From the IMG/VR virus record IMGVR_UViG_3300028833_000004: a stretch of 64,000 bases of DNA. One strand, written 5' to 3'. This stretch comes from a virus. Numbering within the stretch: the first letter of the stretch is position 1; each line of letters begins with the position of its first letter. The notes under the pieces are model-generated. The model did not search any database. It saw nothing but the letters and a program-made list of their open reading frames with translations, and had not been told where the DNA came from. Positions 1 through 30,929 of this stretch are shown here, piece after piece. The translations under genes and the position numbers were made by a program.

Positions 1-1114
1 ATTTAATATCGGACTCAGTGTTTGTATAAGTCTATATATGTTCATTAACATTAACAGTGGCTGTGTCGCCAGGCTTTACTAAAATTGCTACTAATATATC
101 TCCAGAGTTCCTGGGTGTATTATCTGTAAACCAGCCTTGAGGAACTTCAATTGTATAGTGATGATACCAATAATATGTTCCGCTAATATCACTAGTATTA
201 ATCCAATCCTTTTTAGTGACGATTCCGGTCAGTTCATCTAGACCATAAGCCACACAATATTCATTATTCTAGTCAAGGTTGAGGGGAGCTGTTCGATTCA
301 CTGTTTTAGTAATTTCAAATGATTTAGATCCATTCAACATATTCCATACTAAATCATTATCTTCACTAAATATTACCCATTGATAGTTATCATTATCATC
401 ATGAACACAGATGTATGATTTAGACCCATCAATCATTTTGAACATAAATCCATCAGTTGCTGCTGATGCATCATAGGCTGTATAAACACCATCTTTTACA
501 CCTATAAGTCTGGTTTCCATATCGTCTAGGAAGCCAATTGTTTCACCTTTATAAACAAACCCAAGGTCATAATTATTTACATTATTAACAACCGTTCCTG
601 TGCCAGATCCTGAAACTTCAACCCAAATACCATACACCACTTTATAGGTTCCATCAATTGGAACATAGCCATCATCAAAACTAGTTCCATTAAATGTGTG
701 TGTAGTTAATGTTCCATCAACCCATTCTTCACCACTATTCGGAGTTTGTGCCTAAATTGAACTTGGCCGGAGAATATTTCCAGAATGAGCTTTATAATAA
801 TATTTCTTTTGGGAGTCTGCGTTAATAGCTGAAATAACAGAGTATAAAGCTTTCCTCTTCAACATGTATAGCTTATTTGTATCCTTTACAGCGACTACCA
901 TACCTTCATATAAGGGGATACTGACATCAACATAATTTCCAGTGAAACTCTAATCATATGGTTTCTATCCAACGTTATCTATTAAGAAAGTTCCATAGTT
1001 TTCGAATAAATCAGACTCATGATCAACTAAAACTCTATTATCTACAGGAACACCTGAAGTTGGATATATTATATTCGGAGTAGCAATTCCTGGATTTTTA
1101 TTATATTTAAACAT
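1..1114 (-). CDS. virion structural (tail-fibre-like) protein; C-terminus runs off the window; TAG-recoded
   Basis: ATG at 1114. One frame joins track ORFs 269..640 and 32..253 through 5 in-frame TAG, with no TAA/TGA down to position 1. Confidence 0.6.
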
Positions 1115-1125
1115 AATTATAAAAA

Positions 1126-2775
1126 TTAAAAGTTAAATTTTAAAACTCTTGGTCCGTCTTCAAATTTAAATGGGATTGTGTAAATATTATAATCTCCATC
1201 AGATGCTGAACTTATATCAGCACGTAATTGATCTGATGTTATATTTTTGTAAACCCTATTAAAATCATCATAATATTGAATATTACTCAAACCAAAAGAA
1301 ATACTATTATGTAATCTAATTTTTCTATCTGTTCCTGCAGTCATTCCACCAAAACCAACGTTAAACGATTTTAAATTGCCATTGGTGTGTGTTATATTTA
1401 ATGAAATTTCAGACAATGTGTTAGAGGTAACCCCACCATTATTAGTATCACCCTATCCAGGTTTACCGTTGGTTGATACAGGATAGCATCCATATACTGT
1501 AAATGTTTTAGTATCAGAATTGTGCGAATTTCCAACAATTTCAACCTATCCAATCTATGAATTAATACCTATTATAGTTTCGTCGCCATGTGCTTTAGTA
1601 GTGTCATTTTCTGGAAAATATGCAAATTTCAAAGAGTCATCCCCACCAGTATCAGAATCTTGAGAGAGACTCCATTGAAGTGTTCCATTTTTATATACAA
1701 CATAAACTGGTACTGGATTGGGGTCATCTAATTGTATATAACGTCCCGTTAGTGTAAAACTAGCACTATTTATACCAGGTGTTATCTCTAAACCATTATA
1801 ACTCTTGGTATAGGTTGTTGCTGGATCAAAAGTATAACTATTGTATCCACTAATATTCTTTCCGATAATCTTATAATCTGTTATCTGGCTTTGTTTAGAA
1901 ACCTGGATTTTCGATAGTGAATAATTTATAGAATTTGGGTTGATCTGCTCAGTCCCTAAAATATCTTCCCAATGAGGACCACCTACCAAATAATTCAGTT
2001 CATGAACTGAACCACTATCAACACTTGCTGTTTGATTTCCATTAGAATCAGCAACTGTAATTGATATAACTGTTCCAACAGGAACCTAAGCTCCATCATA
2101 AACTGTTGAAGAAACACTCAAATTAACCTATGGATTTGATATGCTAATAGGGGTAATATTAGGAGTGCCTAAAGATGGAACTGGGATTGCTTGATTCATA
2201 TATCGTCTAGTGAAGATATCATAGAAGACTTCATCGACACTCTTACCAGCTGATTTATATACACCACCATCCAACTGATCTTCTGTCCATCCACCTTTAT
2301 CCCACGCTGCTGCTACAGTATTAGTGTTAAGTTTAAAATTAACATCAAAATAAGTGTTTGCAGTACTATGTTTTAGAGTTACCCAGTTATTATTATGATA
2401 AACATAAACTACGGTGAGTGCGTTTAGGTTTCTTAAATGATCGTTTGTAGGATATTCAGAAACAACCTTGGATGAGTTTGTTGTGTCAAAATTTGAAGTT
2501 TCATAATTTTCATGTACAGCATTTAAAACTTCTATATAAATATCCCCCTCCTATAATCCTGGAATATTACTCTTATCTGGATGCTCATCAGACCAATAAA
2601 TATTTGCGCCGCCTGAGCCAAGTGTATACTCCATTCCATTGGCCCAAATTCTCTTATCATTTCCATTTGCATAGAAAATCAAATAACCATGAGAAGTATC
2701 TGTAGTATTTTGCGCTTTTAAGGCCTCATAGTCCTAACTATTATCGGCCTAATAAAATTTTACTTTTTCTGCCAT
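1126..2775 (-). CDS. virion structural/tail-fibre-like protein (549 aa), TAG-recoded
   Basis: ATG at 2775, TAA at 1126-1128, length 1650 nt. 8 in-frame TAG and no TAA/TGA. Joins track ORFs 1126..1416 and 1555..1989. Confidence 0.7.
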
Positions 2776-2779
2776 ATTA

Positions 2780-3421
2780 TTACTTTGTTTTATATTTATT
2801 CCAACTTAAACTATTATCAATATATCTTTTTATACTTCCAGTACTAGCGAAAGTTTTTTGCTCACCTGGCTAACCTTTTGCTCCAACATCCCGTTCAATG
2901 TCTCCGGTCCTGTCTATAACAGGCACATCTGGTAAATCTTCATTCGGGAATGTTAATTGAAGCCAGGTTCCATATTTAATATCTGTTATCTAATTAATAA
3001 GCCTCCGTTCGCCGTACTGACTACCATCAGAATTATATACAACTTTGTAAATCTGGTAATTATCCGATTCATCTAGTTCATATATAAACGAAACAAATCG
3101 GTTATTAAATTCATAGCAGTATTTAATTCTTCCACTTTTTAATTTATTTGTTGGGTAGCCTAACATATCTAAGACTCCATAAGCGCATTTAACTGGATAT
3201 GTTATAATTTCTTCCCCGCCATCTGCAAAAATCAATTTAGCTGATAGGTCTGTAGAAAGTTGAGCAAAAAGTTTAGGATCAGAGTCTTTTACTAGAACGA
3301 CCATTCCAGAGTATCCAGAAAATGCCCCATCAATATAAAAAGTTTGGGGATTTTCTAAATCTTCCACATTAGCAACTACAACTCGGTTATCTAATGGAAA
3401 AGACCCGCTTGGAATCAACAT
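2780..3421 (-). CDS. hypothetical virion protein (213 aa), TAG-recoded
   Basis: Track ORF 2990..3421 ends at TAG. The frame continues through 2 TAG to TAA at 2780-2782. Confidence 0.65.
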
Positions 3422-3458
3422 CTAAGCCTATTTTGACCAAATTGATGAATTATCGGTA

Positions 3459-6400
3459 TTATATATTAACATCTTTTGTAAGTTTATATTTTATTACTTG
3501 TGGAGAAGCACTTCCAGACACCTCAAGTGTAAATATTGATGAGTTCTAATCAACTGAATCATCGGTTTGAAGAGCTGTGGTCCATTCATCTTGAAATTTC
3601 TAAGGTTGACTTAAAAATATAACATACTGTAATGAATAACCCTTGGGGAATTTTAATTGATAATCCTAGGCCGCGTGCCTTACTATAAAAATTACTTCAC
3701 CATTACTATTAACTGGAAAATTGTGTATATACTATGGATCAGTAGTAGCATCAACGTCAAAATCTATATCTTTAATTATCCTATTTTCATTTAATATTGC
3801 CTAATAGTAGGATCCATCGGCATTAATACTATATGGGTTACTAGTATCTTCTTTTGGAGTAAACCATCCAGAAGCTGCAACTGTTACAGACTATGATACT
3901 TTAAGTTTAGTTGATACTGAACAGCCTTTAAGTTGAGTGATTCCCTAAACAGTAATTGGGAACTCAACTCCATTGTCCTCATCTATTAAATCCCAACTAT
4001 CTACAGGATAGGCTATATAACGTTCCTCCCCATTAAATCTATCACTAAAATTAATTTTACCTTCTTTAAGTAATTGTAAATTTTTATCAGTAATTATTGA
4101 ACCATTATATTCCTACCCATAGATACTACATTTACAGGTTATAGTTACATCTTCAGTAAGTTGATATTGTTCTGAATTAGATATCTATTCACCATTAGCA
4201 AAATAAGTATATTCTGGAAGTAAGACCTTTATATCACTACACTATTCCCATCCATTATTAGTAACTTCGGCTTTATCACTATCAATATAATCCCAGTCAT
4301 CCATAGGTTCCCACGTACTAAGATCAGTTAACTTAAAAGTTTCTCCCCCAATTCTATAATTCTTCTAAGTGCCTTCTATCAGATTGATCTTTTGATATAT
4401 TATATCTGTTTGTGGAAAATCTTTATTATTAAATAAATTCTACAAATTCACAATTCCTGAATTCATATTATATTCAGATTCGCAATATACATTTTCTGAA
4501 TAAGATTCATCTGAAAATTCAACGGAAACATTTGGTAATTCTTCAATTGATATATTATAAGTAATTTTAGGAGAATATTGAGAGAATATGCATGTTATAC
4601 TTGTATCCTATCTTAAATTATTAATTGTGTATCCAGTTCTATAGAATATCTCATCAATAAATTCCTATCTCTACCAATCAGACGGGCAATAAAGTAAAGC
4701 CTCCTCAGGTTCCAATGTTGTAATTGCGACAGGATGATATTCTCCCCACTAATTAAGTGTTATTGTATAAGTTCCGCCATAAGGAAGTGAGAAATATTGT
4801 TTATTAAGATCATTATTAATATCCCACTTTAAATCTGGATAATCTGAATCTACAACTTTAATTGCATCTGCTGGTATACCTTTATTGCTTTCTTCTGCAT
4901 CTTTAATTAAGTAAAAAGTTATTTTAATTAACTTCTTATTAAAAATAAGATATATTGTTGGATTCTTATCATATATTGTGACAGAAGCACCATCACGTAT
5001 TAAGCCAGTCTAACTTCCATAATTTTCAAACACCCATCCATCACGTCTTGAAATTTTATAAGATGTTAAATCTATAGGTACTCCATATGGTATATCTGGT
5101 ACAGATATTGAAACTTGATCTGAGCCATATTGTTGATATATAGTTAATGCATATTTTATAGTTTCAAAATATATATTAACAGTAGTGTCTCCAAGCAATT
5201 CCACTGAGTCTAAAACGGATTTATCAGTAGACCTTGGACCATCATTAATCTATACGGAATCGAATCTTAATTTTAAACCACCTGCGTGATCATCCCAAGT
5301 AATGCTACCAATGCCACCCTAAACCATACGTCCATTATAGGTAGCACTAACATCATTATTTGAGTCTTCTTTGTTATCAATATAGCATTTTATAGTAAGT
5401 GTTACGGAGTTTTGGTCAGATTCTACTACAATTGTATGATCTTCTTCAATTTTAAAGGTGTATAAATAAGTAGAGCTATCAACCATAGTATAATTATTTT
5501 CATTTACAGAATCCTAATTATCCACAAAACTAGAAATGCCGTATCCAGAGCGTGGTCTAAAGTAACATTTAACTTCCTCTAAGTACTAATAAGTAGACCC
5601 TAAAGCTAGATCTGTGATTATAAAATCCTCACCAGAAAATGACAGCTCAGTATTTATTCCAGAGAATGTTACCTAATATTCCTCAGGTGTTACAATGGCA
5701 TATACAGTTATATCAGAATTTATATTAGAAATTGTAAAAGAATCATATGTACTTCCTCCATATCCCCACTTTTTAAAATTAAAATGAGGATCTATATTTA
5801 AATTCTATATAAAAGATGAATCTATAGTAATTTCATTCTTTGATATACCTGTAGTATAAGGTTCGCCATAGAGAACCGCGCCTTTATATTTAGATTCATA
5901 ATCTTCACCAACAACTTCTACTGTAAGAGTGTATGTTTTTGGTTTTTCTTCTTGTGGTATTCTTACAACCAACCGCCCATCTTTAGTAATCTCTACTCCA
6001 TAATATTCACCAGAAGCAGATTTGATATAAGATTTATCTGTCTCCCCACAAACTTTTGCAAGCCCAAGATTATTAGAATTGGCTTTTGGAACTGTAACAC
6101 TATCTACGGTACTACTTTTATTGGATTGCAGATTTATTTTAAATCCATCATTTAAAGACTCTTCTGATAAATCATATGTTGGGGCTTCTTTCTACTCGGG
6201 AATTGTTATAAATGCACCTTTTCGAATACCGCCCAGAGATAAGTAATACTATCTAGTATCTTTTTTTTGTTCTATGGTATAATCCTAATCCGAACCTGAA
6301 TTACCTATATAAAATGATTTTGAATATTTGTCTTTAGTAATGGTTAATCTTTTAAGTGTACTTCCATCCTCTAAAGATTCGGCATCAACATCTAAAGGCC

Positions 6401-7097
6401 AAGCAATTGCATCTACTACTGTATCACCTCTTTTAAGAACTATCCCATTTTTAATACCAACACTCTTATCAAGGTCTGCTGTATAATTACCGTCCGCATC
6501 AACTGAAAAAGGTTGCTCTTTTAAATGATACTCTGGTATATAAAACTCCCCAACATTAACTTCATCTTTGAGTAATGTTACATGGGTGTTATTTTCATCT
6601 GATGTTACGTCTAAAGTGTAATTTGGAATATTCTATACCTCAGGTAATGGGATTTCAACTTGGTGGGCAAAATCATCGGTTGTAAAAATAGTTAAGATTC
6701 CCTGGTCAAATTCCAGACGTTTGATCTTAGTATCTTTAAAAAATGCCTCACCAGCTGGGGACTCGTTTCCATCTAAATCTCTTCTGACTAATCTAACCCC
6801 ATTATCACCGGATTTTATAGCTGGTTCTAATTTATACTAACTGCTATTTATAACGAGGGTTGTTTCTCCAGTAGCTGCGCATATTACTTTTCTAAGTGCT
6901 TCAATAAGGACCCTGAAATCTTCTTTCTAATAATATTTAGGATCAGAATCGAATCTAATAAGAAGTTCTTCAAGTAATTCGCCCAACTCCTATTGTGAAG
7001 GATTGATAAGATGCTCATTTCTCGGTTCACATATGTCTAATCCCCTAACAACCGAGCAATCATTTATAGCAACCGATTTGTCTATATTAGTATTCAT
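3459..7097 (-). CDS. giant tail-fibre/receptor-binding-like virion protein (1212 aa), TAG-recoded
   Basis: ATG at 7097, TAA at 3459-3461, 3639 nt. About 30 in-frame TAG and zero TAA/TGA. In frame with track ORF 5010..5204. Frame spot-checked at 3 places. Confidence 0.75.
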
Positions 7098-7107
7098 TTT
7101 AAAAATC

Positions 7108-7773
7108 TTAAACGTTTTTATAATCAAGTATTGTTGAAATCTTTTGAGTCTTTCTAATCAACTCCTTAAGTATCTTTCGCTCAGGAAGATCAACCGACCC
7201 CTTAAAAGCAAGCATTAAAAATCCGATCTAATCATTAACCCCTTCCAGACTACAAAAAACAACCTAAGTCATTCCATCTCCAGCCAATTCTCTATATAAT
7301 CCCGGGAAAGTTGTCTATAATTCAGATATATCTTTTATTATATATATGACTTGTTTATCCAACTCATTTATAAAATCTGGAATAGATGAAACCATAATAT
7401 TATCCAAATCCTTACTAAGTTCATCAACTCCTAATTTATTTCTCTATATAACCAGTGAAATATGTAAGAATGGGAGTCCAGTTAAATTATAACCTCCATT
7501 ATGATATTCAAAGATGGCTATACGATCCCCATCGAATTTATTCATAATCTCAGTAAGAAGTCTATTTATTTTAAATATTGAATCTTTTCTAAGTTTGCGA
7601 GCTCCTCGCTTATGTGTCTCAAACTTACCATCTAAAAGAGTTTGAGTTAGAGATTCTACTAGTTTATCTCCAAATTTAAATAATAATAATAAAAAAATAA
7701 TTAGAATAGCCCCAGCTATTCCAAATTGTTCTAAAGCCTAAATAATAAAACCACCTATCTAACTTATATCCAT
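7108..7773 (-). CDS. hypothetical protein with N-terminal transmembrane segment (221 aa), TAG-recoded
   Basis: ATG at 7773, TAA at 7108-7110, 6 in-frame TAG. Hydrophobic stretch GIAGAILIIFLLLF near the N-terminus. Confidence 0.6.
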
Positions 7774-7827
7774 ATCTAAAAATTAATAGTTAAATTACTA
7801 AACCATTAATCCATATTAATCATGGTA

Positions 7828-7835
7828 CAAATATA
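7828..7835 (-). promoter_or_regulatory. Bacteroidota-type -7 box (TAtaTTTG)
   Basis: Reverse complement reads TATATTTG, matching TAnnTTTG, about 55 nt upstream of ATG 7773. No clean -33 TTTG at canonical spacing. Confidence 0.3.
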
Positions 7836-7850
7836 ATAGATTTTCGATAT

Positions 7851-7895: not shown

Positions 7896-7914
7896 CTTGC
7901 CATTGTTTAAACCA

Positions 7915-8061
7915 TTAAATTTCAACCGAAAGTAAGTTAATTTCATCAATTAAGTCGAGTATGTTCGTGTTAATTAATGTTTGATTAGATTTAAGTTGAT
8001 TTATTACACACTCAAAATTGTTTTTTATTAACTCTAATTTTCCAATAATATTGTCAGACAT
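7915..8061 (-). CDS. small hypothetical protein (48 aa)
   Basis: ATG at 8061 overlaps the TGA of the upstream gene (ATGTCTGA). TAA at 7915-7917. Confidence 0.4.
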   Translation of the reverse strand: MSDNIIGKLELIKNNFECVINQLKSNQTLINTNILDLIDEINLLSVEI

Positions 8062-8536
8062 TTCCAGTAATTTTTAGAATAATTTGTTCACCTCTATTTT
8101 TTGCCGGTATTAAGTAATTATCCATTAAATCATAAAATGTTTTAACACTTTCCAAAACCTTTCCAACTGCTGTATTTTTCCCAACTATAATACAACCTAA
8201 AGAATCCGATGCAGAATTTCCAGTATGTATTAAAACACCTTCAAAACCAGGAACTCCTAAAAGTCTTGGGATTTTAGAATCATATTTCTTTGCCCATTTA
8301 TATTTAAATGGATTACTATACTTTTTACTAACAGTGTTCATATCTAATACATAAGTTCCATATGGAATAGCTGTCTCTCCATAAACCTTTCTCTTTTTTA
8401 CTTCCTATAAAGGCATAGACTAGACCAATCCTCTATCTGTATCTTCAACCGTATCACAAACGTATTTTCCATTAATAAATAATTTACCAATAGTATAGGT
8501 CGGTTTCTTAAACAGTCTTTTTAACTCCGCTATCAT
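8054..8536 (-). CDS. DUF5675-like protein (160 aa), TAG-recoded
   Basis: ATG at 8536, TGA at 8054, 2 in-frame TAG. Motifs GKLFINGKYVCDTVED, GETAIPYGTY and VPGFEGVLIHTGNSASDSLGCIIVG recalled as typical of this family. Confidence 0.6.
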
Positions 8537-9097: not shown

Positions 9098-9116
9098 CTG
9101 ATAATCAATTAATTAG

Positions 9117-9189
9117 TTGCCCTGAATGGATTCGAACCATTTCCCCAGCTTTTAGAGAGCCATCAACTAACCATTATTATGACAGGGCA
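9117..9189 (-). tRNA. suppressor tRNA, anticodon CUA (reads UAG)
   Basis: 73 nt. Acceptor TGCCCTG/CAGGGCA. Anticodon stem TGGCT/AGCTG with loop CT-CTA-AA. T-arm AATGG-TTCGAAT-CCATT. GG in D-loop. D-stem weak. Confidence 0.75.
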
Positions 9190-9212
9190 ATAAACCGCCT
9201 AAGCGGTTTATA

Positions 9213-9800
9213 TTAAAATTTAGCTTTCAAGATATTATCATGAAGTTCAAACTCAACATTGTGCATTTTAAGCAGTTCTAGTATAACTGCTGAGAGAAGC
9301 TCAGAATCAGAGATTTCTACTGGTTTATTGAGTTCCAACTCCTTTAAAACATCTTCCACTGAACGCCCCTCCTTAGGAGATTCCTTCTGAGGACAGTATT
9401 CTTTTGGGCATTCTTTAACCTCTTCAGTATCTAGAGCATCAAGAAATGCGTATATAAGTTTCTCAATATCTTTTGCTTCCTTATCTACCTTATTAGGATA
9501 TTCTTCCGTCTGGTGTTCTGTACAAGTAATTTCTTTAAGAGTTTTTGTTAAAAACTCCTTTGCCGGTTCGACATCATTCCAAATAGGATCAACCTTATCA
9601 TCTAAAAAATAACAGGTTAATAACTGCACTGCAGCTTTAAAGTTTTCCAAATCTTTCTCAGTTTTTCCGATAGCTTGTAAGAAGGCCCCAACACCATGAT
9701 TGAAAATAAATTCCTTCTCCTCATCTGAGAACTCGCACATTAGTTCATTTTCAAGAGTTTCAATTTGATTTAATTTAGCAACTGCTTCACAAAATTCCAT
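9213..9800 (-). CDS. acidic hypothetical protein (195 aa)
   Basis: Intact track ORF with no TAG. A hairpin AACCGC-ctaa-GCGGTT at 9193-9208 follows the stop. Confidence 0.65.
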   Translation of the reverse strand: MEFCEAVAKLNQIETLENELMCEFSDEEKEFIFNHGVGAFLQAIGKTEKDLENFKAAVQLLTCYFLDDKVDPIWNDVEPAKEFLTKTLKEITCTEHQTEEYPNKVDKEAKDIEKLIYAFLDALDTEEVKECPKEYCPQKESPKEGRSVEDVLKELELNKPVEISDSELLSAVILELLKMHNVEFELHDNILKAKF

Positions 9801-10012
9801 AAATTTTTAAAATTTTTAATTATTGATTCTTTTAAAACATTAACATTTAACACTAACCACATCCATATGGCAATTATACATTTTTTCATATCACTTCATC
9901 TTTTGTAATACAAAGTTACTACTTTTTTTATAAAATAAATTATCTTTTTTAAAATTTTTCCACTAAAATATATAACAACAGGAGAGAATTATATAATCCC
10001 CTCCTGTAACAA

Positions 10013-10474
10013 TTAATCTTTAAATTTCATCTTCATCTTACTGTAGTTATTAAAATTAATAATAAGATTAGCCCTACAATGTTCGCACATAAACTATTTA
10101 GCAACTGAAAACATTTCTTTGCCTATCTCTCCCTATAAATATTGAAAATCTTCACTATACGGATCAATTTTATAATACTCTGCAATATGTATTGCAGCAT
10201 GTCCTTTTTCATGATCATAAGTATTGACAAACTCCTAGGTAGAATCTGTTAATCCAATCACTATAAATGTAACATGCTTTTCTGCATCTGTATAAGTAAA
10301 TCCAGTATTTAACTCGTAATTTCTAAGCATACTCTCTACCCGATTAAATGTTTTTTCCGGGCAATCGATACTACTTAATTCATCTAATATCTCATCTGTA
10401 TAATAAGTAGTTACAGCATAGAAAATTTTAATAAGCCAATCATATTCTTCTAAATATATAACCTAAACTATCAT
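10013..10474 (-). CDS. hypothetical protein with HExxH motif (153 aa), TAG-recoded
   Basis: ATG at 10474 overlaps the upstream TGA. TAA at 10013. 4 in-frame TAG. Contains the sequence YDHEKGHAAIHI. Confidence 0.6.
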
Positions 10475-10878
10475 AACATATCTGACCATATTATTGGAGT
10501 TCCAGACGCTATACAATCAGCATAATACCTTGTAAAAGGCATCCCATCAGGAGCATCTGGATCATCACAATAATCTTTTATAAATTTTGCTAAATGGACA
10601 TCATCAGAGATAGATGATCCAAGAAAATCTGCTTTAGCCATATTTGCTACATAGATATAATCATAACCCTGTGAATTAGTTAACTTTATATTATACCTCT
10701 CCAGAAGCTAATCTACATCTTCTTTTGTATATGGCTTAATAAATTCCTTCCTACCATTTATATCTTTATACATTTTGGAGCAGGCCCATTCGCACATCTT
10801 TTTACTAAAATGCCACCCATAGAATTCCAGATACTGCTCCATATCCTATGGGAAGGCATTTCTTATATCTAACCTCAT
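10471..10878 (-). CDS. hypothetical protein (135 aa), TAG-recoded
   Basis: ATG at 10878 overlaps the upstream TGA. TGA at 10471. 2 in-frame TAG. Confidence 0.6.
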
Positions 10879-11586: not shown

Positions 11587-11597
11587 AATTAATAAAT

Positions 11598-14249: not shown

Positions 14250-16469
14250 TTAGTATTTTTTATCGAGAACTTCATCATTCTATTTACCATCATCTAAATA
14301 AACCTAAGCAAGTTCTATTTTATTCCGGTTTTTGATTAGTTCCAACTCCTATTCCTTTAACTCTTTCTTAGCTTTGACCTCGTACCATTTGATATTCTGG
14401 TTCATCTAATTATCTTGCTATTCAATATTCAACTTACGCTCATTTAGCTGTGCAAGTTTCTTTGTAGATTGCTCTAATCTTGATTGCATCTACTACATAT
14501 TTTGTTGTGCCTCCTATAATTGTTGAGCAAGTTGTTGTATCTAATCGTGTTCAAGTTTTTTCTCTTTTATAGATTTTCTAAGAGCATCGTACATTTCCGT
14601 AAGAGATTTAGATTGCATTACTAAAGCTACTATTTCAACATCTACCTAATCACTCTATGCTAATTGAATAGCCAATTGCCTGATTGACTCCTATTCTTTT
14701 ATTAAATCAGCACTACCAGAAACATGAACATCATAATCAGTTTGGGAGTAATGTTCCGGTAAAAGTGTAAAAATCTGTTTTCTATTACCTAGAATAATCT
14801 AACCTGAAAGTCCATTTTTAAAAACTCTTCTGGCAACGTCTAAACTATCTGTTAACATTTCGGATACTAATGTATCCATAGCTTGATAATACTATTTGGT
14901 TATAATAAAAGATTGCTACATACCAACCTCAACATTAGCTACAGCATCTCTAGCTTGAATACCTCCTAATCGCTCTCTAAATACTCCGGTAATAGAACTA
15001 GCAATCTCTTCAGTCATCTATATAGCCAATTGAATGGCCTATAGACTACCTAACTAAACAGTATCATCGTATCCATTAAAATAAGTATTTGCCATCTAGC
15101 CTTCCTAAGAAGAATCGAATATAGATAATCCAGATTTTCTATAGGCCAAATATTTAGCAAGTCTCTCCTCAACATCGTCACCTAAAACTGTCGGTAAAAA
15201 TGATAGATCAACATGAGCTCCACGAGGTCCGGATAGTGCAATAGTGTTATCTTTATAGAAAAGAAGTAAATCGTAAGAATCTTGTAAATAAGCGGTTGCA
15301 AGCATTAAGGAGTATGGGGACCCATGCCCATCAGTATAATATATACCATTTATATTTAATCTAACCTCATTTGGTGCATCCATATCTCTGACGACATGTT
15401 TATCCTCTCCCCGTAATATATACATATCAGAGCCTATTCTTACAACCTCATATCTATTACCTTTAATTTTGCCGGACTTATCTTTAACCCAATCAATCCA
15501 CTCCACTTCATATACTGGAATTAAATCCCACTTCTAATTATAATCACCACCTTCAGGATGCACCCCAACACCATCAACTACACCAGGATTATGATAATCA
15601 CCACATCTAGCACCTAAAGATTTAACCAAAATAAAGTTGCTATGATAGTCTCCTCTATCAATGTATTGATCATCAATTCTATCTATATCGTCCTGGGACA
15701 TTTCCTCACCATATTTAATAAGGATCTCTTCTTTAGTCATCCATTTACGAACAACGGCACGATATCCATTTTTTATATATTTACTTTTTGGATCTTTATC
15801 AACAAAAACATTAATTGGATCCTCAATTTCTATTTTAAAATTGGTTCCTGCAGAAGTTGGAATAACTTTATAATAGGCCTCCCCAGAAATGAACAAATCT
15901 AATAAAATTTGTTGAAGTTTATTTTTAAAATCTATCTTTCTGGACTACATTATGTATTGAACAATATCCTATCCAGCTATTTCATAATTAGATATAAAGT
16001 TTAAATCCACAGATTCCTTTATATCATCTAATTGCTGTTGAATAGTTTGATCAACTATTTTCTGATCCTGCTGTTTGGGTCCAGATAATGCCTAATATAT
16101 AGAATTTTCTAAAAATTTAGAAAGCCAGTCATGAATCTCTTTAGATAACATTAACTATTTCTCTCTAAAAATTTTAGACAAAGTCCCCTAATCTTTACAA
16201 GATATTTTAGGTCTAATTTCTGTTGTCAAGTATTCACCTACAAGTGCATCTATATGTTTTCTAATTAGCGGAGTGAATGACATTGAAGTAGGATTTCCAA
16301 CTCCCTCATTTTTTTCGAGGTTTTCGTATTGGTAATGATCTCGTTTTCCCTAATAATAATTATAAGCTTTATATAGATGTTCTTTCTCCTTAACAAGATC
16401 CCCAATACAATAATCGGCCCACTCTATTAAATAATCATCAGATCCTTTCTTAAACTAAGACTTCCACAT
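14250..16469 (-). CDS. portal protein (putative, 739 aa), TAG-recoded
   Basis: ATG at 16469, TAA at 14250, 2220 nt, more than 20 in-frame TAG and no other stops. Joins track ORFs 15534..15896 and 15105..15506. Sits next to TerL. The size and the coiled C-terminus are portal-like. Confidence 0.6.
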
Positions 16470-16471
16470 AA

Positions 16472-16801
16472 TTATAAATTACTATCATTTGCATGTAGAA
16501 TAATCTACATATGTTGAGTTAAGTCTAATCGACTTTTTTTTAGTTGTTTTCTTATAAACTGCAAAAACTCTTCTTCGGTTTTACATTGTGTTGCATATAT
16601 AATCCCACCATATTGTGGTCCATGAACATACAAAGTAGCCTGATACCAATCACCATCATGAGTTGCTTTTATCGGAACTTCACTTATACAATTATAAACC
16701 TCTTCAATTATGTCAGTTATTTTTTTCTCAAGTCCATCCATTTTTTCTAACATTTTGCTCTTGTGTTGAAATAACTCCAAACACCTTCTAACCATATTCA
16801 T
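16472..16801 (-). CDS. hypothetical protein (109 aa)
   Basis: Track ORF 16505..16816 trimmed to the first ATG. It ends at TAG and continues to TAA at 16472. Overlaps the TerL 3' end; start uncertain. Confidence 0.5.
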
Positions 16802-18983
16802 TCTTATAATACCCAATAGTTCTGAGAATTTTTTGAGTAACTTCCTATTTAGGCCTCTTACCTAACATATCTTCATCGGCTAATAAAGCCATAGCAAATG
16901 CAGCGGTAAGGTCAAATTTACCTTTATTTTCTGGGGTATATCTAATTAATTCATCTATAACTTCTAGAAAATCTATCTAGTCACAATAATCATAAACATA
17001 TTGTTGGATTAACTCTATTTGGTGTTCAATAATTCCAGCTGTAGCTGGACATCCATATTGATTTGCATTCTATGTTTTAGAAGTAAGGGTTGCTCTAGGT
17101 CTTTTTAAGAAATATCCAGTCTATCCATACCTTCTAAAGTGTGTGAATATACTCATACGGGTTGCCTCAAATAATACTTTAGCATTATAAAACTCAGCTA
17201 ATTTTAAAGCTGTATCATGGGCCATACTTGGATCATCAGGTCGTTCTTTATATATAGCAACAATTTTTGGTGGTTTAAGTCCATACTATCGCCTGAAAAC
17301 AATTAAGCCATATTTTGATAAGTCAGTTTGACCTGTACTAGTTTCTTTACCACTATCAAAGCAGTCTGCCCCTATTACATATAAATTAATAGGAACTGAA
17401 CCGTCTTCTAATTTTATTGGTGGCTCAATCATATATATTGGCCCGTTATTAGACAATTCCATTTTAGGAACTGCACTTCTATCAACTCCGCCCAACTCTT
17501 TACTATATGGCCAAATAAGTTTAATGCCTTTTGGTTTTTCAACCATACCCTATTCAATATAGGTTTTCTATTCTGCCAGCTTTTCAGTATTGAAAATATT
17601 AGAACCCTCTAATATAAAGGCATCTTCTGGAGTAAAACAATACTCTGCCTTATCTTTTAATAAAGCCTCAGGATCTTCGATAGTACTCCACTGCTATTCA
17701 TAATATCTTTTAGCCGCCTCCTCGTCAACAACTCCTCGGTCATCAAATTTACCAAACCATAAAGTATAAGCAGGGATAAAAAATCCTGTGAATGCTTCCT
17801 AACCGTCTCTTGAATAGAAATGTCTGTAAGGCAATACTTGGTAAGCTTCTGGATTATAAAAAATACTTTTTAATCCTGAAAGGGCAGGGCCCGAATCACC
17901 ACCAGTTCCACCGGTACTTCTCTAACCAACTCTGTATCCTAAAATATCGACAAGAGGCCTTGATTGAATATAAGTATCTAAAAGCATGGGATCGGATCCA
18001 CACTCCTCAAAAATTAAATTATATACACGAGCTCCACGAAGTTTTCTTGGCTTATCGTGTACACGTCCCTCAATTACGGACATCCAACCAGTCTCATTCT
18101 TATCTTTATCTACTTTAGATGCTCGTTTATAAAACTAAGTATCAGCCTTCATTCTAACCCTTTTAAAAGCACCTTCTGTGCAGGTGTTTAAAAAGTCTAA
18201 TTCCTGCCAAACCTTATCTAAGGTATTTGTTACATAATCGACATTAAAAGCAGTAACCATATTATGGGAAGCCCTATGAAAGGAATAACCACAACATACA
18301 TCTGATGCAGACATCTAAGAAAATCCAACACCACGAGATTTAAAGACATTTACATCCTTTCCCAATTTTCTGGCCAATGCTTTATAGTGAAAATACTCAT
18401 ACTATTTAGCAAAGAATCTTGGAAAATCCTCTTCCTGAGATTCTTGTTTATTTTCGGCCAATACTGACGGCAGTCTGAAATAATTTATAAAGAAATAATT
18501 TTCACCTGTTAAAGTATATCTACCTATAGTAATCCCATCTTTACATCTATTAAATTCTTCTATCCAATGTTCTCTGTGGGCAAAAGTTCCGGGGATTAAT
18601 TGTGTATATCTACCAGTTCTCCTATAAGTATCGGCAGCAACTGTAAATAGTTTTGGATCAAAATCTAAACCTCTATTTGCAGTAATTGGTCTATATCCAG
18701 TTAATTCGTATGATAATTCAGGATCGAAATATTCAATCGGATCTCCAATTTTAACATCCCACCCATCCTCATCATAAGATTTCTCTTCAACAACTGGTTT
18801 TGGTTCAGGTTCCTTATAATTAAGCATAGCTTGATACTCCTAATCATTTTTCTCTTTTTTAGTTGGAGTTTTTCTTTTCTTACTATACTTTTCATCAAGT
18901 TCCTATGCTTTAGCTATTAATTCCTCTCGTTTTTTCTCTCTCCAATATTTTTTTGATAGTTTTTCTAATTCCTTTTCATCCAT
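16728..18983 (-). CDS. terL: terminase large subunit, TAG-recoded
   Basis: Single frame from 18983 (alternative ATG at 18827) to TGA at 16728, with more than 10 in-frame TAG. Motifs KSRGVGFS, RGARVYNLIFEECG (Walker-B-like) and ENYFFINYF. Confidence 0.7.
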
Positions 18984-19688: not shown

Positions 19689-20096
19689 TTACCGTTCTGG
19701 AGAGATTACATTACTCCCCCCGTTTCTATACACAGGTTTACCAGTACAATCAACTTCAATCAATTTTCCACCGATCTTATGTAGTGTACAACTACAAGGT
19801 TTTTCGCCTTTAGATTTTTTTTCTACTTTATCTCCCAACCAATTACGTTTTACTTTAGTTCCACATTTGGCCATTTGGGTCTGGCCCCGCATTTGTTCAA
19901 GCAACTTTCCTATCTAGGGATCAGCCTAAGCTAACTCTTCAACAGCCTAACCTAGGCCCTGTTGAATTGCGGAAGCTAATACTTGGGCAGCCTACTATGG
20001 ATTTTTCTAAATAACCTATAAAATCTCCTACGCTTCAGGAGATAAAGTCACACCTCCCTATTGGAATTTTCTGTAATACTTTTGTGTGTTAATCAT
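19689..20096 (-). CDS. hypothetical protein with TAG-dense N-terminus (135 aa)
   Basis: ATG at 20096, TAA at 19689. 9 TAG in the first 62 codons. The motif KFQ-TAG-GG parallels FKQGG in gene 30165..30929. Confidence 0.6.
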
Positions 20097-20330: not shown

Positions 20331-20675
20331 TTAATCTTTTTTAAATCTTTCTGATAGGCCTTCTGCAATTATCGCTTTAACAGAAACCTCATTTAATACC
20401 CATAGGTCATGCCCAAAGAACGGTGCTGGGAATACAGCTCGATGATCAAATAAAACATCATCTCCAGCTTTTACAAACTCACATTCAGGACCTGCCTCAA
20501 TAACTTTACCAAAAAATGCAGTATTTTCTAATTTTTCAACTAAACCTGAATCGGGATTAACAAAATCCTCTGTCATTTCTACCTCATTTTCTTTTACAAT
20601 CTTTTTATAAGGATTGTCAAAATAAATCTCAATCAAGAGATTATTCATAATTGGATAAATTTCTTTCTCTTCCAT
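20331..20675 (-). CDS. groES: GroES-like co-chaperonin
   Basis: Track ORF. FGKVIEAGPECEFVKAGDDVLF resembles the GroES core. The start overlaps the GroEL stop. No TAG. Confidence 0.6.
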   Translation of the reverse strand: MEEKEIYPIMNNLLIEIYFDNPYKKIVKENEVEMTEDFVNPDSGLVEKLENTAFFGKVIEAGPECEFVKAGDDVLFDHRAVFPAPFFGHDLWVLNEVSVKAIIAEGLSERFKKD

Positions 20676-22135
20676 TATTCATTAACAATTAAACAATTTG
20701 CACTAATTATATTAGTTGCAGCACTAACTGCATTTTCTAAAGTTTCTTTTACTACTAAGTATGGCTCAATAATCCCATTCTCAAAAGCATCTCCAGAAAC
20801 TCCAGTCCTAATATTTAAAACATCCCAATAATCTTCTACACTTCCACTTGAACTCGTTGCCTGATCCAATAGGATTTGTGTTGGGGCATATAAAGCCTTC
20901 TTTAAAAGTGGAACATTTAAATTCTTAGCAGCTTCTCTTAAAGCTTTACCACATCCAGGAAGTACCCCTCCTTTTAAAGCACAAGCTGTAGCTGAAATTG
21001 CATCTTCATATAAGTCACATCTAGTCTTAGCTTCTGTCTCACTATATCCACCTACGAATATTTTAGCAAGCCCACCAGAAAACATTGCAAGACGTCTTCT
21101 ATGAAATTCATACTCAATCTCAGGGAGTGGATTCTCAAGGATCTGTTTTACCATATACTTACGTTCCTCAACGGCCTCTGTATTAGAATTATAGCCTATA
21201 AAGGTTGTATCATCTTTTGTAATGATAACTTTATCACAACACATTGAATCACCTAAAACTGCTTTAATATCTTCTAAAATAGTTTCTCTCATGACTCCAA
21301 ATTCAGGACTTTGGATTAATCCTGCCTGCATTCGCCCACCTTTGTTTGGATCAAACATATTGTGATATATCAACATTGTAATAGAAGAATCGAAATCTGG
21401 GGCAATTAATAAAAGTGATTTTCCTTGATCAATCGCCTTTTGCCAGATCTCTTTAACTTTTCTAGTTTCTTCCATTTTAGTTTGGGAGATATATACCTGA
21501 ACATTATTCAATTCTATATTTCCTTCACTAGTATTGATAAGATATGGGGAAAAGAATCCTGAATTAATTCGAAAGCCTCTGCTGTACTCTATCCTATCAG
21601 TCACGCTCTCACCCTTCTCATATAATACAAGTCCATCTTTTCCAACCTTATCATAAGCTTCGGCAATTGTTTCACCAATCAACTCATCCCCATTGGCTGA
21701 CAATGTTGCAACTTTTTTAATATCTTCTTTATTAGAGATCTGCTTTGTATGTGATTTCAAATCTTCTAAAACCAAATCCCTCTCTTTAAATAATTTTCTA
21801 GAAATTTCTATTGGATTGCCAAAGTTTATATAATCATTTACAATAGCCCTTGTAAGTATTGCGACGGTACTAGAACCATCTCCGACTTCTTTTGCAGTTT
21901 TTACTGAAACTTCTTTAATAAGATCTACACCAGCTTGTATATATGGATCTAGTACTCTAACTGCTTCAGAGACGGTCTTTCCATCTTTTGTTATTTTTAT
22001 CCCAGCAGGATTTTTAATAGCTACTGTTGCTGCATTTGGACCATAAGTACACTGAATTGCATCTGTAATTAAATTAACACCCTCTAATAGTTTTTCTCTG
22101 GCAATCTCACCAATTAATACACAATCATTATTCAT
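20675..22135 (-). CDS. groEL: GroEL-like chaperonin (Cpn60 family, 486 aa)
   Basis: Track ORF. Contains GPNAATVAI..KITKDGKTVSEAV and VGDGSSTVAILTRAIV, compared with GroEL GPKGRNV..TKDGVSVA and AGDGTTTATVLA. No TAG. Confidence 0.8.
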   Translation of the reverse strand: MNNDCVLIGEIAREKLLEGVNLITDAIQCTYGPNAATVAIKNPAGIKITKDGKTVSEAVRVLDPYIQAGVDLIKEVSVKTAKEVGDGSSTVAILTRAIVNDYINFGNPIEISRKLFKERDLVLEDLKSHTKQISNKEDIKKVATLSANGDELIGETIAEAYDKVGKDGLVLYEKGESVTDRIEYSRGFRINSGFFSPYLINTSEGNIELNNVQVYISQTKMEETRKVKEIWQKAIDQGKSLLLIAPDFDSSITMLIYHNMFDPNKGGRMQAGLIQSPEFGVMRETILEDIKAVLGDSMCCDKVIITKDDTTFIGYNSNTEAVEERKYMVKQILENPLPEIEYEFHRRRLAMFSGGLAKIFVGGYSETEAKTRCDLYEDAISATACALKGGVLPGCGKALREAAKNLNVPLLKKALYAPTQILLDQATSSSGSVEDYWDVLNIRTGVSGDAFENGIIEPYLVVKETLENAVSAATNIISANCLIVNE

Positions 22136-26875: not shown

Positions 26876-26933
26876 AATTTCATTTATTTAATTTTCCACA
26901 CTTTTCTATAAAAGTTTAATTATATATTTTTAG

Positions 26934-27004
26934 CAGGTCTACTTCGAATCGAACAAAGGATCTCAGTTTTGGAGACTGATGTTTTACCACTAAACTATAG
27001 ACCT
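26934..27004 (-). tRNA. tRNA-Trp (CCA)
   Basis: Full cloverleaf. Acceptor AGGTCTA/TAGACCT. D-stem GTTT/AAAC. Anticodon loop CT-CCA-AA. T-loop TTCGATT. Confidence 0.85.
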
Positions 27005-27027
27005 ATCAGTAGAGTATAAGAGTTTGG

Positions 27028-27098
27028 ACACCATAGTAAGAATCGAACTTACGATAACAGTTTTGCAGACTGTTGCCTTTCCACTTGGCTATATGGTG
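27028..27098 (-). tRNA. tRNA-Cys (GCA)
   Basis: Acceptor CACCATA/TATGGTG. Anticodon stem ACAGT/ACTGT with loop CT-GCA-AA. T-arm GTAAG-TTCGATT-CTTAC. Confidence 0.8.
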
Positions 27099-27255
27099 TT
27101 GAAACAGCGTTTTAAGGATTTACGGTACGCTGTTAAGAGAAACCTCTGCCACATGGGCAGGGTGTTATAATGGAACCTCTCTCACCGATCCCACCAAGGC
27201 TCATGCACTACCTGTGGGCTGATACTCTTCTATTGCATTATTCAAGTATCCAGTG
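27099..27255 (-). ncRNA. structured spacer inside the tRNA cluster (possible small RNA)
   Basis: GC-richer 157 nt with an 8-bp hairpin AACAGCGT/ACGCTGTT, a CTGCC/GGCAG hairpin and an enclosing AGAGA/TCTCT helix. No tRNA fold found. Confidence 0.3.
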
Positions 27256-27329
27256 CGGATTCAGTAGGACTTGAACCTACGACCCTCTGATTAACAGTCA
27301 GATGCTCTAACCAACTGAGCTATGAATCC
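27256..27329 (-). tRNA. tRNA-Asn (GTT)
   Basis: Acceptor GGATTCA/TGAATCC. D-stem GCTC/GAGC. Anticodon loop CT-GTT-AA. T-arm GTAGG-TTCAAGT-CCTAC. Confidence 0.85.
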
Positions 27330-27347: not shown

Positions 27348-29057
27348 TTATTTATTATTTAATTCACCTCCTGATTTAAATGTAATGGTTGGGCCAAGCT
27401 AGAGTTCATCCATAGTTGCCCCGGCTGTAGTTATTCCAGTTTGATTAGGACCTGGATAAGAATACTAATCAGATATAAAGGGCTAATTTAACACACTTCT
27501 AGCAGAGCCTTGTCCATAAGGATAATATCCTGGAGCGTACTTTCCTCCAACAATATTTTTTACATTACCATCACCTAACGTAAGTTTAATTTTTCCCCAG
27601 GGTCCTGTGGCGACACCTCCAGGATTTTTATGATATTCTTCTTTAAACCACGACTGAAATTCTGGAGACCCCCAATTTTTAACAGTCTACCAAGTTGATA
27701 ATTTGGGAATTGTAACTATAGTAGATGTTGATGGGATAGTTGAAGTAGTCGGATTATCATACCTAGGAAAATATGTTGGATAGAAAAACTTATTTGGAAG
27801 ATTAAAACTATAAGAATATACTCCATAATCAACCGGACTTGGGGTCATTTCTACAGCAAAAGTCTACTACCCCCTACCATCTACAGCAAAAGTCTACTAC
27901 CCCCTACCATGAGGTTGCGCATCTCCATGTCCAAATTTATATCTTGAGGTATTATTCCATCTAAATAAGCCACTGCTTGGTTTTCCAGTATTAAATCCTG
28001 GAGTAGAAGTACCTTTTACTACCTGAGGATTTGCCAACACAACTCTCTAGGTGTCTCCAAATTCTCCAGCAAGACCTTCTAAAGCATTTCCCCCAACCTA
28101 TAAAGTTACATCCGGAGTACTTACATTTTTTAAATGCACTGATCCATCTTTATAACGAACCCACTAATATTGATCCGATATGGGAGTATACGAAAGTTCT
28201 GCAGTTGGAAAGACTTTTGCAGCACCAAAACCAACTCCAAGAGCTGCAGGATGTACAACATTCCAAAAATGGGAATCATTTTCAGCTGGATCTATAAAAA
28301 GATCACTTATAGGTCTTCCAACCTTCTTTTCCATAACATCGGAAAATCCAGAATACTTTCCATCAGACGCTTGTCGTATTGTATAATCTGTTGCAGATGC
28401 AGCTCCAGCACCAGCTATGGCTGCCAATGGATTTGTAAAACCAATTATTGCTGGGGCAATAATAGAGGCAGCTTTATCGGTACTCTATCTTATTCCTCTA
28501 TTAAAAAGCGCTGATTGCACCTACTCTGGTATATATTTAGAAGTCTCTTTATTCCACCAATTTGGATGAGCTTCAATGATTTTAACCCAATCAGGTATAG
28601 GTAAGATCTATCTATACTTTGTATAATTTGGGTTGAATAGAACAGATGGATCATTAGCCGCTTCATTTCTCCAAGCAGTTAATCCCTCAGAACTGGCTTT
28701 TTTATCAGCTTTTCCTGTAACTGTAACTTCTGGAAGCTATCCTGCATATGCGTATGCAGTATTAGAAGTTGTTAAATCTGCATCCTTCACCTACTTTGGT
28801 GTAATGCGAGTAGTATTTCCTTTTGTTTCTACTACATCCTCAAATTGAAATTGATTTCTATATTTAGGGTTAATTACTATTTCTTTATTTCTTTTATCTC
28901 CACCACCCATAGTCTATAATGCCTTAGCTAATCTAATATTAGCTTCAGCCTAACCAACTTCAGAAGGATTAATTCCTAATTCCGGATGATCCTAAACAAA
29001 CTATTTTCGAGATTCTATACTCGATAAATTATACTTCTAAAAAATCTAATACGGTAA
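27348..29057 (-). CDS. large virion-associated hypothetical protein (about 570 aa), TAG-recoded; start uncertain
   Basis: The frame is open from 29135 to TAA at 27348 with about 20 TAG. Includes track ORF 28164..28427. The nearest ATG (29059) is out of frame by one base in an A5/T5 run. Confidence 0.6.
27851..27910 (-). repeat. perfect 30-bp tandem duplication inside CDS
   Basis: ctacagcaaaagtctactaccccctaccat occurs twice, encoding GRGQQTFAV(D/E) twice. Each copy contains two TAG codons. Confidence 0.9.
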
Positions 29058-29083
29058 CATTAGTATATAATATATTTACAATT

Positions 29084-29860
29084 ATTAATTTCTTTCTACA
29101 TCTTTAACTACCTAACCTCCCAATTTATAAGGGTATCAATATCATCCTTTATATAATCTACAGTATATTTTCCCCTAACTTTTAAATCAGCTATATGCCA
29201 GATTTCTAAGGAATCAATAATAAAATCAGGATTAAGCTTTTGTAATATCCAAGCATATATAGAAACCTATATTTGATATCTTGTGAGATCTGAATCCATA
29301 TATTTAGACATAGGATATCTTAAGGTTTTCTTCTTATGTTTAGACATGTCATATTGAGAATTCTTTTTAATTTTATCACCGGTTTTAAAGTCTATAATAG
29401 TAATATGATTCCCATCTCTAATAAGACAATCAATCACCCCAACCAATAATATATTTTCATCTAAAGGATATTCAACTCTTAATTCATTAAATACTCCCTT
29501 TTCAGTCTTCATAAAATTCTCCTATGCAGATATGGAGTATACTGAAGTGTCTATGCCTAATGTTGATATAGCATTAGAATTGAATAGATTTCGGATCTAT
29601 TCATGAACTTCAGTACCTTGCTTTTTAGCATCATCAGATTTATTCTTCCAATCTTCTTCAATCTCTTTATAAGTGTTTATATAATCGATTGGATCTAAAT
29701 CCTTTATATATTTCTCATCAATTCTCTTACTTTTTAAGAGTGATAATTTAATTTCTTCAAAATCTGGATGTAGTTTTTCAAGAGTCTTGTAATACAACCA
29801 AAACTCCTTTTCAAAGATCCTCAATTCCGATAATATTCTTGTAGGCGATAGTATTTCCAT
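29084..29860 (-). CDS. PD-(D/E)XK nuclease (RecB/Cas4/lambda-exo-like), TAG-recoded
   Basis: ATG at 29860, TAA at 29084, 4 in-frame TAG. Motifs GTEVHE, GVIDCL, IIDFKTG and RYQIQVSIY (QxxxY). Confidence 0.65.
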
Positions 29861-30135
29861 AACGTGCAAAGTTAATTATTATTCAAATAATATAAAATAT
29901 GGATCGATATTTTTTATAAAAATAAAATTAATAAGAATTCTTTATTATATTATACATAATATATAATATATAAGGTATTGATTTGAATTTTATTATGGAC
30001 TCAGTTAAATATTACTAATAATATCCCAGCTCTGTTTTTACTTTGCTAAATAAGTAGTACTTTTGTGCATTATAGGTAATGAATAGAAGTTTTACTTAAA
30101 GTCCTTCGAGCTTGTCGAAAAATATCCTATAATAG

Positions 30136-30165
30136 AAAACCCGGTTTATGCCGGGTTTTTCTTTT
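30136..30165. terminator. bidirectional terminator hairpin
   Basis: 9-bp stem AAAACCCGG/CCGGGTTTT at 30136-30144/30151-30159, with A/T runs on both sides. Abuts the stop at 30165. Confidence 0.65.
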
Positions 30166-30929
30166 TATACTTTATTACGACGATGCACGTGGAAGTGCGG
30201 ACCAGTAGTAATTCCAGGAATGGGATTATCTTTCTCATTTTTAATATAAATGCCCTTATCTCTCATATATTGTTGTATCTCTGGATCATTATCAATAATC
30301 TATTGAGCGAGTTCATAATCATTATCGATAGGGGTAAAATCAACGGCATTACCTTGATAGTGTGTTGAATTTTTTACATGCCCAGACTAAGCAAATCCCT
30401 CAGTAACTCTAACTCCAATCCCCTTACTAGTTAATAACTTTAAGAAATCGATAACATCATTGTGTACATTATCTAATGTTATTCCTTTTTTAAATATTAA
30501 CTCCCCTGGTTCTATATCCCTGGATTTAATATTTGTAGTCCTAATATAATCTCTTAATTTTAAATCAGGATTAAATTTAGACTTATTATCAAGATTTTTA
30601 TCAAGATTGGCTGAAATCTCTTTATATCTTTCAAAAGCTTGAAATCTCTAATTGAACCGATCTGGAAAGAGATCAGAGTAATCCTTGTATTCTGGCTGAG
30701 ATGTATTTGGCAAATATGTAGAGTTATAAAACTCTAAACCTTCTGCTCCTTTTTTAACCCATTTACGTGCGTTCTAAGCAAATGTAGCCTTCTTTCTTAT
30801 AGAGGCTAGTGGAGAATTTTTTCCCTTTCTAATACATTCTTCTGTAACTTTCCCACCACAGTAATCTGTGAAGGAACCTCGTTTTGAGGGTTTTATATGA
30901 ATCCCACCTTGTTTAAATATATTGATCAT
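30165..30929 (-). CDS. LAS-family zinc peptidase (peptidase M15-like cell-wall hydrolase), TAG-recoded
   Basis: ATG at 30929, TAA at 30165, 4 in-frame TAG. Contains STHYQGNAVDF (H-x6-D) and PHFHV (HxH). Confidence 0.65.

Follow-up and report, generated by a model that had tools for sequence, protein, structure and literature searches.

Dual Coding in a crAss-Like Phage Genome: TAG as a Sense Codon, Most Likely for Glutamine, in the Late Gene Block

The Locus

The DNA considered here is a stretch of 64,000 nucleotides from the IMG/VR virus record IMGVR_UViG_3300028833_000004 (hereafter the window, i.e., the whole stretch), in which the late genes of a phage use the triplet TAG as a sense codon, most likely for glutamine (Gln, Q). 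The 64-kb window has a G+C content of 32.8% and splits at approx. 31-34 kb, where the sign of the GC skew flips, into a left block on the minus strand and a right block on the plus strand. The left block (1..30929), termed late on the basis of its gene content, holds approx. 31 genes of at least 90 amino acids (aa) with 196 TAG codons and continues off the left end of the window, with a 400-aa gene and then a 1483-aa LRR_5 protein (locus L087, 19886-20588). The right, early/middle block (34700..64000) is readable in either the standard code (code 11) or code 15, in which TAG is read as Gln.

Recognisable products of the late block, all encoded on the minus strand, include the terminase large subunit (TerL; 16728..18983, 751 aa, 16 TAG; phrog_6681, 8e-70 over residues 118-718) and the portal protein (14250..16469, 739 aa, 28 TAG; phrog_6547, 1e-41). 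They are accompanied by a 1212-aa protein of unassigned function, presumed to be a tail or fibre protein (3459..7097, 30 TAG), and by a 570-aa protein without a family match (27348..29060, 22 TAG). The profile match of TerL extends over most of the protein and therefore crosses both the standard-code fragments and many TAG positions.

Coding Capacity of the Late Block

Open reading frames (ORFs) of at least 150 codons, measured from stop to stop, cover 11.9% of positions 1-31000 in the standard code and 82.5% when TAG is taken as sense. By the same measure, coverage is 15% with TGA as sense and 40% with TAA as sense, the latter figure being trivial because TAA is the commonest stop in an AT-rich genome. 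When ATG-started, non-overlapping genes of at least 50 aa are counted, the coding density of positions 1-31000 is 0.398 in code 11 (median 79 aa, longest 486 aa), 0.44 in code 4 and 0.891 in code 15 (median 146 aa, longest 1212 aa); that of positions 34700-64000 barely moves (0.831 in code 11, 0.837 in code 15). The 196 in-frame TAG codons lie in 31 late genes (at least 90 aa, ending before position 31000), and in-frame TAA or TGA codons and frameshifts are absent from the merged genes. None of the 33 genes called in the late block, a tally that takes in two doubtful ORFs at 31.0-31.6 kb, ends at TAG (TAA 23, TGA 10). Such a pattern is far beyond chance, and it is thus confirmed that the minus-strand late block uses TAG as a sense codon.

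A preliminary description of this DNA had proposed that the whole minus-strand module is unreadable in the standard code and that TAG behaves there as a sense codon, and the densities obtained with tables 11 and 15 bear this out. The word "whole" has to be qualified, as the chaperonin gene discussed below and several small genes are free of TAG. The examples given of genes restored by reading through TAG were sound, i.e., the 1212-codon gene with about 30 TAG codons was recovered, profile matches run along the merged portal and TerL ORFs, and the LIFEECG motif assigned to TerL is present. The fourth example, 27348..29057, is indeed a long gene when TAG is read through, but its upper coordinate is 29060, so that the description was one codon short.

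The Residue Encoded by TAG

A DNA comparison with INPHARED and a single-protein scan of IMG/VR returned no close relatives, and an alignment of TerL was therefore used. TerL has 1403 database homologues, most of them full-length proteins of approx. 770 aa on contigs of 90-187 kb; the best annotated matches are to Crassvirales, with 26-29% identity over approx. 80% of the protein. The TerL clade mixes TAG-type, TGA-type and standard-code genomes. In the TGA-type relatives (loci L008-L014, L068, L072, L077 and L080), in-frame TGA aligns with tryptophan (49%) in the proteins of the window, and sister lineages have thus recoded TGA to Trp.

In an alignment of 102 full-length homologues, the 16 TAG columns of TerL hold Q in 30% of cells, compared with a background of 4.2% and with 36% in the columns of the query's own CAA/CAG codons; the TAG positions are not confined to alignment gaps or termini. 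Because database proteins may already have been translated with TAG as Q, the DNA of 80 related loci was fetched and classed by in-frame stops in TerL, which after removal of duplicates gave 43 standard-code, 14 TAG-type and 6 TGA-type sequences. Among the standard-code homologues, TerL column 194 is Q in 43/43 and column 472 in 42/43, the other TAG columns being variable; portal homologues are present in 50 standard-code loci. A Codetta-like likelihood calculation over 49 TAG columns (portal 28, TerL 15, nuclease 5, peptidase 1) put Q at the top, with a lead of 14.3 ln units over E and of 15.8 over K. Opposite the TAG codons of the window, TAG-type relatives carry Q in 28% and TAG in 9% of cases, and opposite the TAG codons of these relatives the window carries Q in 19% and TAG in 16%; TAG and CAA/CAG thus swap at homologous positions. 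From these comparisons, TAG most likely encodes Gln in the late block, as had been suggested in the preliminary description. The argument used there was a comparison of two supposed paralogues, FK-CAA-GG in gene 30165..30929 and KFQ-TAG-GG in gene 19689..20096. Both strings are found in the sequence, but the two genes have merely a 10-residue N-terminal motif in common (pairwise E = 0.067), and the comparison was set aside as an argument for Gln.

The base that follows TAG is purine-rich when compared with that after CAA/CAG (p = 5e-5). A special read-through context was nonetheless rejected, since this base is no different from that after other NAG/NNG codons (p = 0.09-0.29); there is hence no sign of selection for read-through context, and TAG acts as an ordinary G-ending sense codon.

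The Suppressor tRNA and Its Surroundings

The mechanistic core of the recoding is a suppressor tRNA with the anticodon CUA, overlooked in the preliminary description and found by ARAGORN and by the Rfam tRNA model at 9116..9189 on the minus strand, i.e., inside the recoded block itself. With the Rfam model it reaches 43.8 bits (gathering score 29), whereas the four other tRNAs of the window reach 64-77 bits. It folds into a class I cloverleaf with U33, A37, GG in the D loop, the T loop TTCGAAT, a U1-A72 pair, A73 and a short variable loop; the D stem is weak, with two G-U pairs, and 3 nt (one extra) separate the acceptor and D stems. The short variable loop and class I architecture exclude the bacterial Leu, Ser and Tyr types. 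The tRNA is also unlike tRNA-Pyl, and the label "Pyl" given by ARAGORN comes from the anticodon alone. In E. coli, U35 and a weak 1-72 pair are identity elements for glutaminyl-tRNA synthetase (GlnRS), and we take the U35 and U1-A72 of the suppressor to agree with these rules. Of the 14 TAG-type relatives scanned, two (L005 and L067) have a tRNA(CUA) in the vicinity of TerL; among 26 scanned loci of the standard-code or TGA type, none was found.

Within this context, it can be asked whether TAG is a sense codon for another residue (Glu, Lys, Tyr, Leu, Ser, Trp or pyrrolysine). This is very unlikely. It could draw on the "Pyl" label, on TerL columns 223 and 713, which are uniformly E in distant standard-code homologues, and on the placing of E and K as next best in the likelihood test; however, Q is ahead by 14.3 ln units over the 49 columns, two columns are Q in 43/43 and 42/43 sequences, TAG swaps with CAA/CAG in close relatives, and a tRNA whose variable loop is short and whose GG and T-loop features are normal is neither of the bacterial Leu/Ser/Tyr type nor like tRNA-Pyl.

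Directly upstream of the suppressor tRNA lies an acidic ORFan of 195 aa (9213..9800, minus strand), which is TAG-free (0 TAG among 5 Gln codons, P = 0.036). Its search against 5.8 billion proteins returned only itself, and no Pfam or PHROG match was obtained. The idea that it is a conserved partner of the suppressor was dropped, given that it has no homologue and no match in the 80 related loci. An AT-rich spacer of approx. 170 nt separates the ORFan from a terminator-like hairpin (9978..10007, minus strand; 13 pairs and a T-rich tail) that follows gene 10013..10489 and matches the terminator consensus, which suggests its function. Downstream of the tRNA are two small ORFs, a DUF5675/Tlde1-like protein (8054..8536, minus strand, 2 TAG; PF18925, 9e-25), which is a candidate cell-wall enzyme, and a membrane protein. 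The succession of hairpin, spacer, ORFan and tRNA would be in keeping with a transcription unit of its own, placed before lysis-type genes. A scan for sigma-70-type promoters around the tRNA gave no more matches than expected from shuffled sequence.

The Early Block and the Chaperonin Island

The two blocks differ strongly in their use of TAG, which occurs 22.1 times per 1000 codons in the late and 0.6 times in the early block. The Gln codons of the late genes comprise 196 TAG, 161 CAA and 51 CAG, so that TAG accounts for 48% (196/408); in 40 early genes, approx. 4 TAG stand against approx. 209 CAA/CAG, i.e., approx. 2% (~4/213). Among 42 early ORFs, 27 stop at TAA, 13 at TGA and 2 at TAG, the last two being 35616..35984 and 60764..61336, to which read-through would add 2 and 18 codons, respectively. 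To the right of the window, genes for Thy1, RNase H and a family A DNA polymerase (PolA) are all readable in the standard code.

Within the recoded block, the GroEL-type chaperonin gene (20675..22135, minus strand, 486 aa; phrog_5725, 2e-87; PF00118; PDB 9rwr, 5e-64) is a standard-code island: none of its 12 Gln codons is TAG (P = 2.8e-4). GroEL homologues are TAG-free in six of seven TAG-type relatives, and over all seven, TAG makes up 7% of the Gln codons of GroEL vs. 23-28% of those of portal and TerL (Fisher p = 2e-4, for sequences that are not independent). The adjoining 114-aa gene (20331..20675, minus strand), possibly a co-chaperonin according to a weak GroES match (E = 0.41), has no TAG, and in TAG-type relatives this neighbour has 1 TAG vs. 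55 Gln codons. The literature compared made no mention of a chaperonin in crAss-like phages.

This distribution bears on the view that code 15 applies everywhere in the genome, or in the host, and that the early genes merely happen to be TAG-poor. The fact that just two early ORFs end at TAG, both tolerating read-through (by 2 and 18 codons), would fit it, whereas a TAG share of 48% of late vs. approx. 2% of early Gln codons is not due to chance, and the GroEL gene in the midst of the late block is TAG-free both here and in 6/7 recoded relatives. Moreover, sibling phages of the clade are standard-code or TGA-recoded, which argues against a code-15 host lineage, and Borges et al. (2021, bioRxiv 10.1101/2021.08.26.457843) predict standard-code hosts for recoded phages. 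A single code for the entire genome is therefore scarcely credible.

Assembly and Public Annotation

The window corresponds to positions 34628-98627, reversed, of the ENA contig ERZ27257202 k141_6601460 (158,647 bp). Stretches of 3.7-20.6 kb from Logan (SRR9006729 and SRR9006730) and JGI (3300031992 and 3300024342) are 100% identical to the window, an agreement across three assembly pipelines (ENA, Logan and JGI) of samples whose independence is not known. A 40-mer scan of JGI metagenomes for a leftward extension of the contig gave nothing. That the in-frame TAGs are artefacts of assembly or sequencing, or that the block consists of decaying pseudogenes, has a negligible probability, for the fragmented look in the standard code and nothing else speaks for it, while all 196 stops are in-frame, belong to one type and share a single strand and block, without TAA, TGA or frameshifts, in a sequence obtained identically from three pipelines and several samples, and dozens of related contigs share the in-frame stop pattern.

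The effect of the code on annotation can be read from identical DNA. The JGI record Ga0310694_10000118 (3300031992; locus L086), which equals approx. positions 1-19800 of the window, carries standard-code calls in which TerL, the portal and the 1212-aa protein are chopped into 26-144-aa ORFs; TAG is read through in the gene calls of ENA and Logan.

Other Features of the Window

The recoded block begins with a gene (30165..30929, minus strand, 254 aa, 4 TAG) for a weakly LAS/Hedgehog-N-like zinc peptidase, whose match to PF01085 (0.002) is below the family cutoff, and includes a PD-(D/E)XK nuclease (29060..29860, minus strand, 5 TAG; PF12705, 2e-6; phrog_298, 1e-13) and a cluster of tRNAs for Asn(GUU), Cys(GCA) and Trp(CCA) (26933..27329, minus strand). 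The preliminary description also spoke of a lysozyme; profile searches of the late block yielded no such family, and the candidates for a wall hydrolase are 8054..8536 and the weak peptidase at 30165..30929. A motif F-(K/Q)-(Q/S)-G-G is found near the N terminus of the products of 30165-30929 (MINIFKQGG) and 19689-20096 (...RKFQQGG) and near the C terminus of the 27348-29060 protein (ITFKSGGELNNK); this short motif may serve as a signal for processing or targeting.

A GC-rich island (31000-34700, with 45-57% G+C vs. approx. 31% around it) falls precisely where the late block meets the early one. Its first part, 31000-33150, has no convincing ORF and contains long hairpins, including 31106-31161 and 32603-32718; folding of 30985-31420 gave z = -4.3 for the minus and z = -2.6 for the plus strand. 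Two ORFan genes of 222 aa follow (33181-33849 and 33971-34639). The island has no Rfam family, no Pfam or PHROG match and no IMG/VR relatives, and it lacks flanking repeats of the kind that would point to a mobile element. An undescribed structured RNA and a foreign insert are both conceivable.

Several observations concern the early block only. An HTH_36/DnaD_N-like DNA-binding protein is encoded on the minus strand (38724-39476) inside this plus-strand block, followed by a tRNA-Arg(UCU) at 39847-39920 on the plus strand and, at 41200-43845, by three tandem paralogues that combine a BspA-type leucine-rich repeat (LRR_5) with DUF7666. A second GC-rich patch at 50000-51100 is accounted for by ORF 50346-51065, the N-terminal half of which consists of GYGYG and DGDGSG low-complexity repeats.

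Interpretation

Taken together, it is highly probable that the window belongs to a crAss-like phage of the Zeta type with a genome in two dialects, in which TAG is translated as Gln in late genes by means of the phage's own suppressor tRNA. According to this model, the early and replication genes of the plus strand avoid TAG and could be translated by the standard machinery of the host, whereas the minus-strand late block, which extends from beyond the left edge to 30929 and comprises genes for packaging, the virion and lysis-related functions, writes approx. half of its Gln codons as TAG. These late TAG codons would be decoded by the phage tRNA(CUA) at 9116-9189, presumably charged by the GlnRS of the host, and full-length late proteins would appear only once the suppressor was abundant enough to outcompete release factor 1 (RF1). 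The timing of suppressor expression is likewise an assumption of the model, and, following a proposal in the literature, the regulatory purpose may be to time the late and lysis genes.

Several points weigh against this model. In standard-code homologues, the residue at some TAG columns is E or K instead of Q. With its 43.8 bits and weak D stem, the tRNA is atypical, its A73 and C3-G70 depart from the G73 and G3-C70 of E. coli tRNA-Gln, and its charging with Gln is hypothetical. The support for this genome is derived from sequence, the peptide evidence coming from other phages. Furthermore, neither a release factor nor a synthetase was found among the larger ORFs of both blocks or among the called genes within 10 kb to the right. 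By calculation, an ORF with 30 TAG codons needs more than approx. 93% read-through per codon for a yield of 10%, which means that suppression must be nearly complete, and the suppressor alone may fall short of this level against RF1.

Because near-complete reassignment is needed, yet only a poor-looking tRNA(CUA) and neither release factor nor synthetase is present in the part examined, it is conceivable, if rather unlikely, that the phage encodes an unrecognised factor, hidden among its ORFans, that would neutralise the RF1 of the host or enhance the charging of the suppressor. Candidates may be the ORFan 9213..9800, which is on the same strand as the tRNA and hypothetically co-transcribed with it, or the structured region 31000-33150. 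If such a factor existed, the chaperonin island would mark a class of genes translated before the switch.

As a kind of recoding, that of the late block has already been described, and the phage is a further example that leaves the known picture unchanged. It is a well-resolved instance of dual coding within one genome, and its main value lies in correct annotation: as code-aware calls give proteins of 751, 739 and 1212 aa instead of fragments of 26-144 aa, the late proteome can be annotated only if the code is recognised. Small additions are the TAG-free chaperonin gene across recoded relatives, whose exemption is a small hint on the order of translation during infection, and the fragmentation of the same DNA in a public standard-code annotation. 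The position of the suppressor inside the recoded block and the unexplained GC-rich structured region at its head are also of interest. Since the clade contains TAG, TGA and standard-code relatives side by side, it should be useful for studying the origin of code switches.

Comparison with Known Systems

In E. coli supE, a tRNA-Gln with the anticodon CUA competes with RF1 at UAG and inserts Gln there. The suppressor of the phage resembles it in its CUA anticodon, U35 and weak U1-A72 pair. However, supE is a partial suppressor of rare nonsense codons, whereas TAG here makes up approx. half of the Gln codons in 31 genes, which requires a near-complete reassignment.

Block-wise use of code 15 in gut phages was reportedly described by Ivanova et al. 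in 2014. It has also been addressed with Mgcod (bioRxiv 10.1101/2022.06.29.495998), and Borges et al. (bioRxiv 10.1101/2021.08.26.457843) have proposed that late-gene recoding acts as a timing device. The phage shares with these block-wise recoded phages standard-compatible early genes, structural and lysis genes forming one recoded unit, a suppressor tRNA, the rarity of TAG as a stop and a low-GC genome, and no phage synthetase is needed if the host GlnRS accepts CUA. It differs from them in that the suppressor is placed within the recoded block, not in an early "code change module", that the chaperonin island is exempt from recoding, and that no release factor 2 or synthetase, both optional in the literature, was found in the part examined (the window and 10 kb to its right). 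In crAss-like phages, TAG-to-Gln reassignment (code 15) in structural proteins was confirmed by metaproteomics (Peters et al. 2022, PMC9523058); one of the two phages with proteomic support belongs to the Zeta group (review PMC10136315). The same reassignment in structural proteins is seen here, the proteomic proof being from other genomes.

Among the closest published counterparts is the Zeta group of crAss-like phages (Yutin et al. 2021, PMC7886860). The genomes of this group measure 145-192 kb, encode suppressor tRNAs and contain inteins; a PDDEXK nuclease lies among the structural genes, and the recoding, which mainly concerns late genes, turns TAG into Gln or TGA into Trp. Together with the code 15 work (PMC9523058), this description substantiates the remark in the preliminary description that stop-codon recoding is known in some gut phages. 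Some features set the phage apart: its TerL has no intein, Rfam scans at the gathering threshold over the whole window and at an E-value threshold over 30500-64000 found no introns, and the samples may be non-human. The major capsid protein (MCP), IHF and the giant, multisubunit-like RNA polymerase with its DxDxD motif were not recognised in the window and are probably encoded elsewhere on the contig. Many TerL homologues, among them P0013, P0015, P0034, P0049, P0059 and P0062, are 900-1190 aa long and carry intein/homing-endonuclease domains (PF14528, PF14890 and PF05203/PF05204). The likenesses to the Zeta group (PMC7886860) comprise a genome of approx. 159 kb (contigs of 158,647 and 158,651 bp, inside the Zeta range), recoding confined to late genes, a suppressor tRNA of the phage, neighbouring branches that use TAG, TGA or the standard code, TerL inteins (here in relatives only), a PD-(D/E)XK nuclease in the structural block (29060..29860), a family A DNA polymerase in the replication block, and TerL and portal proteins that appear distantly related to those of Crassvirales (26-29% identity for TerL). 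Judged against the published description, the phage probably belongs to the Zeta group.

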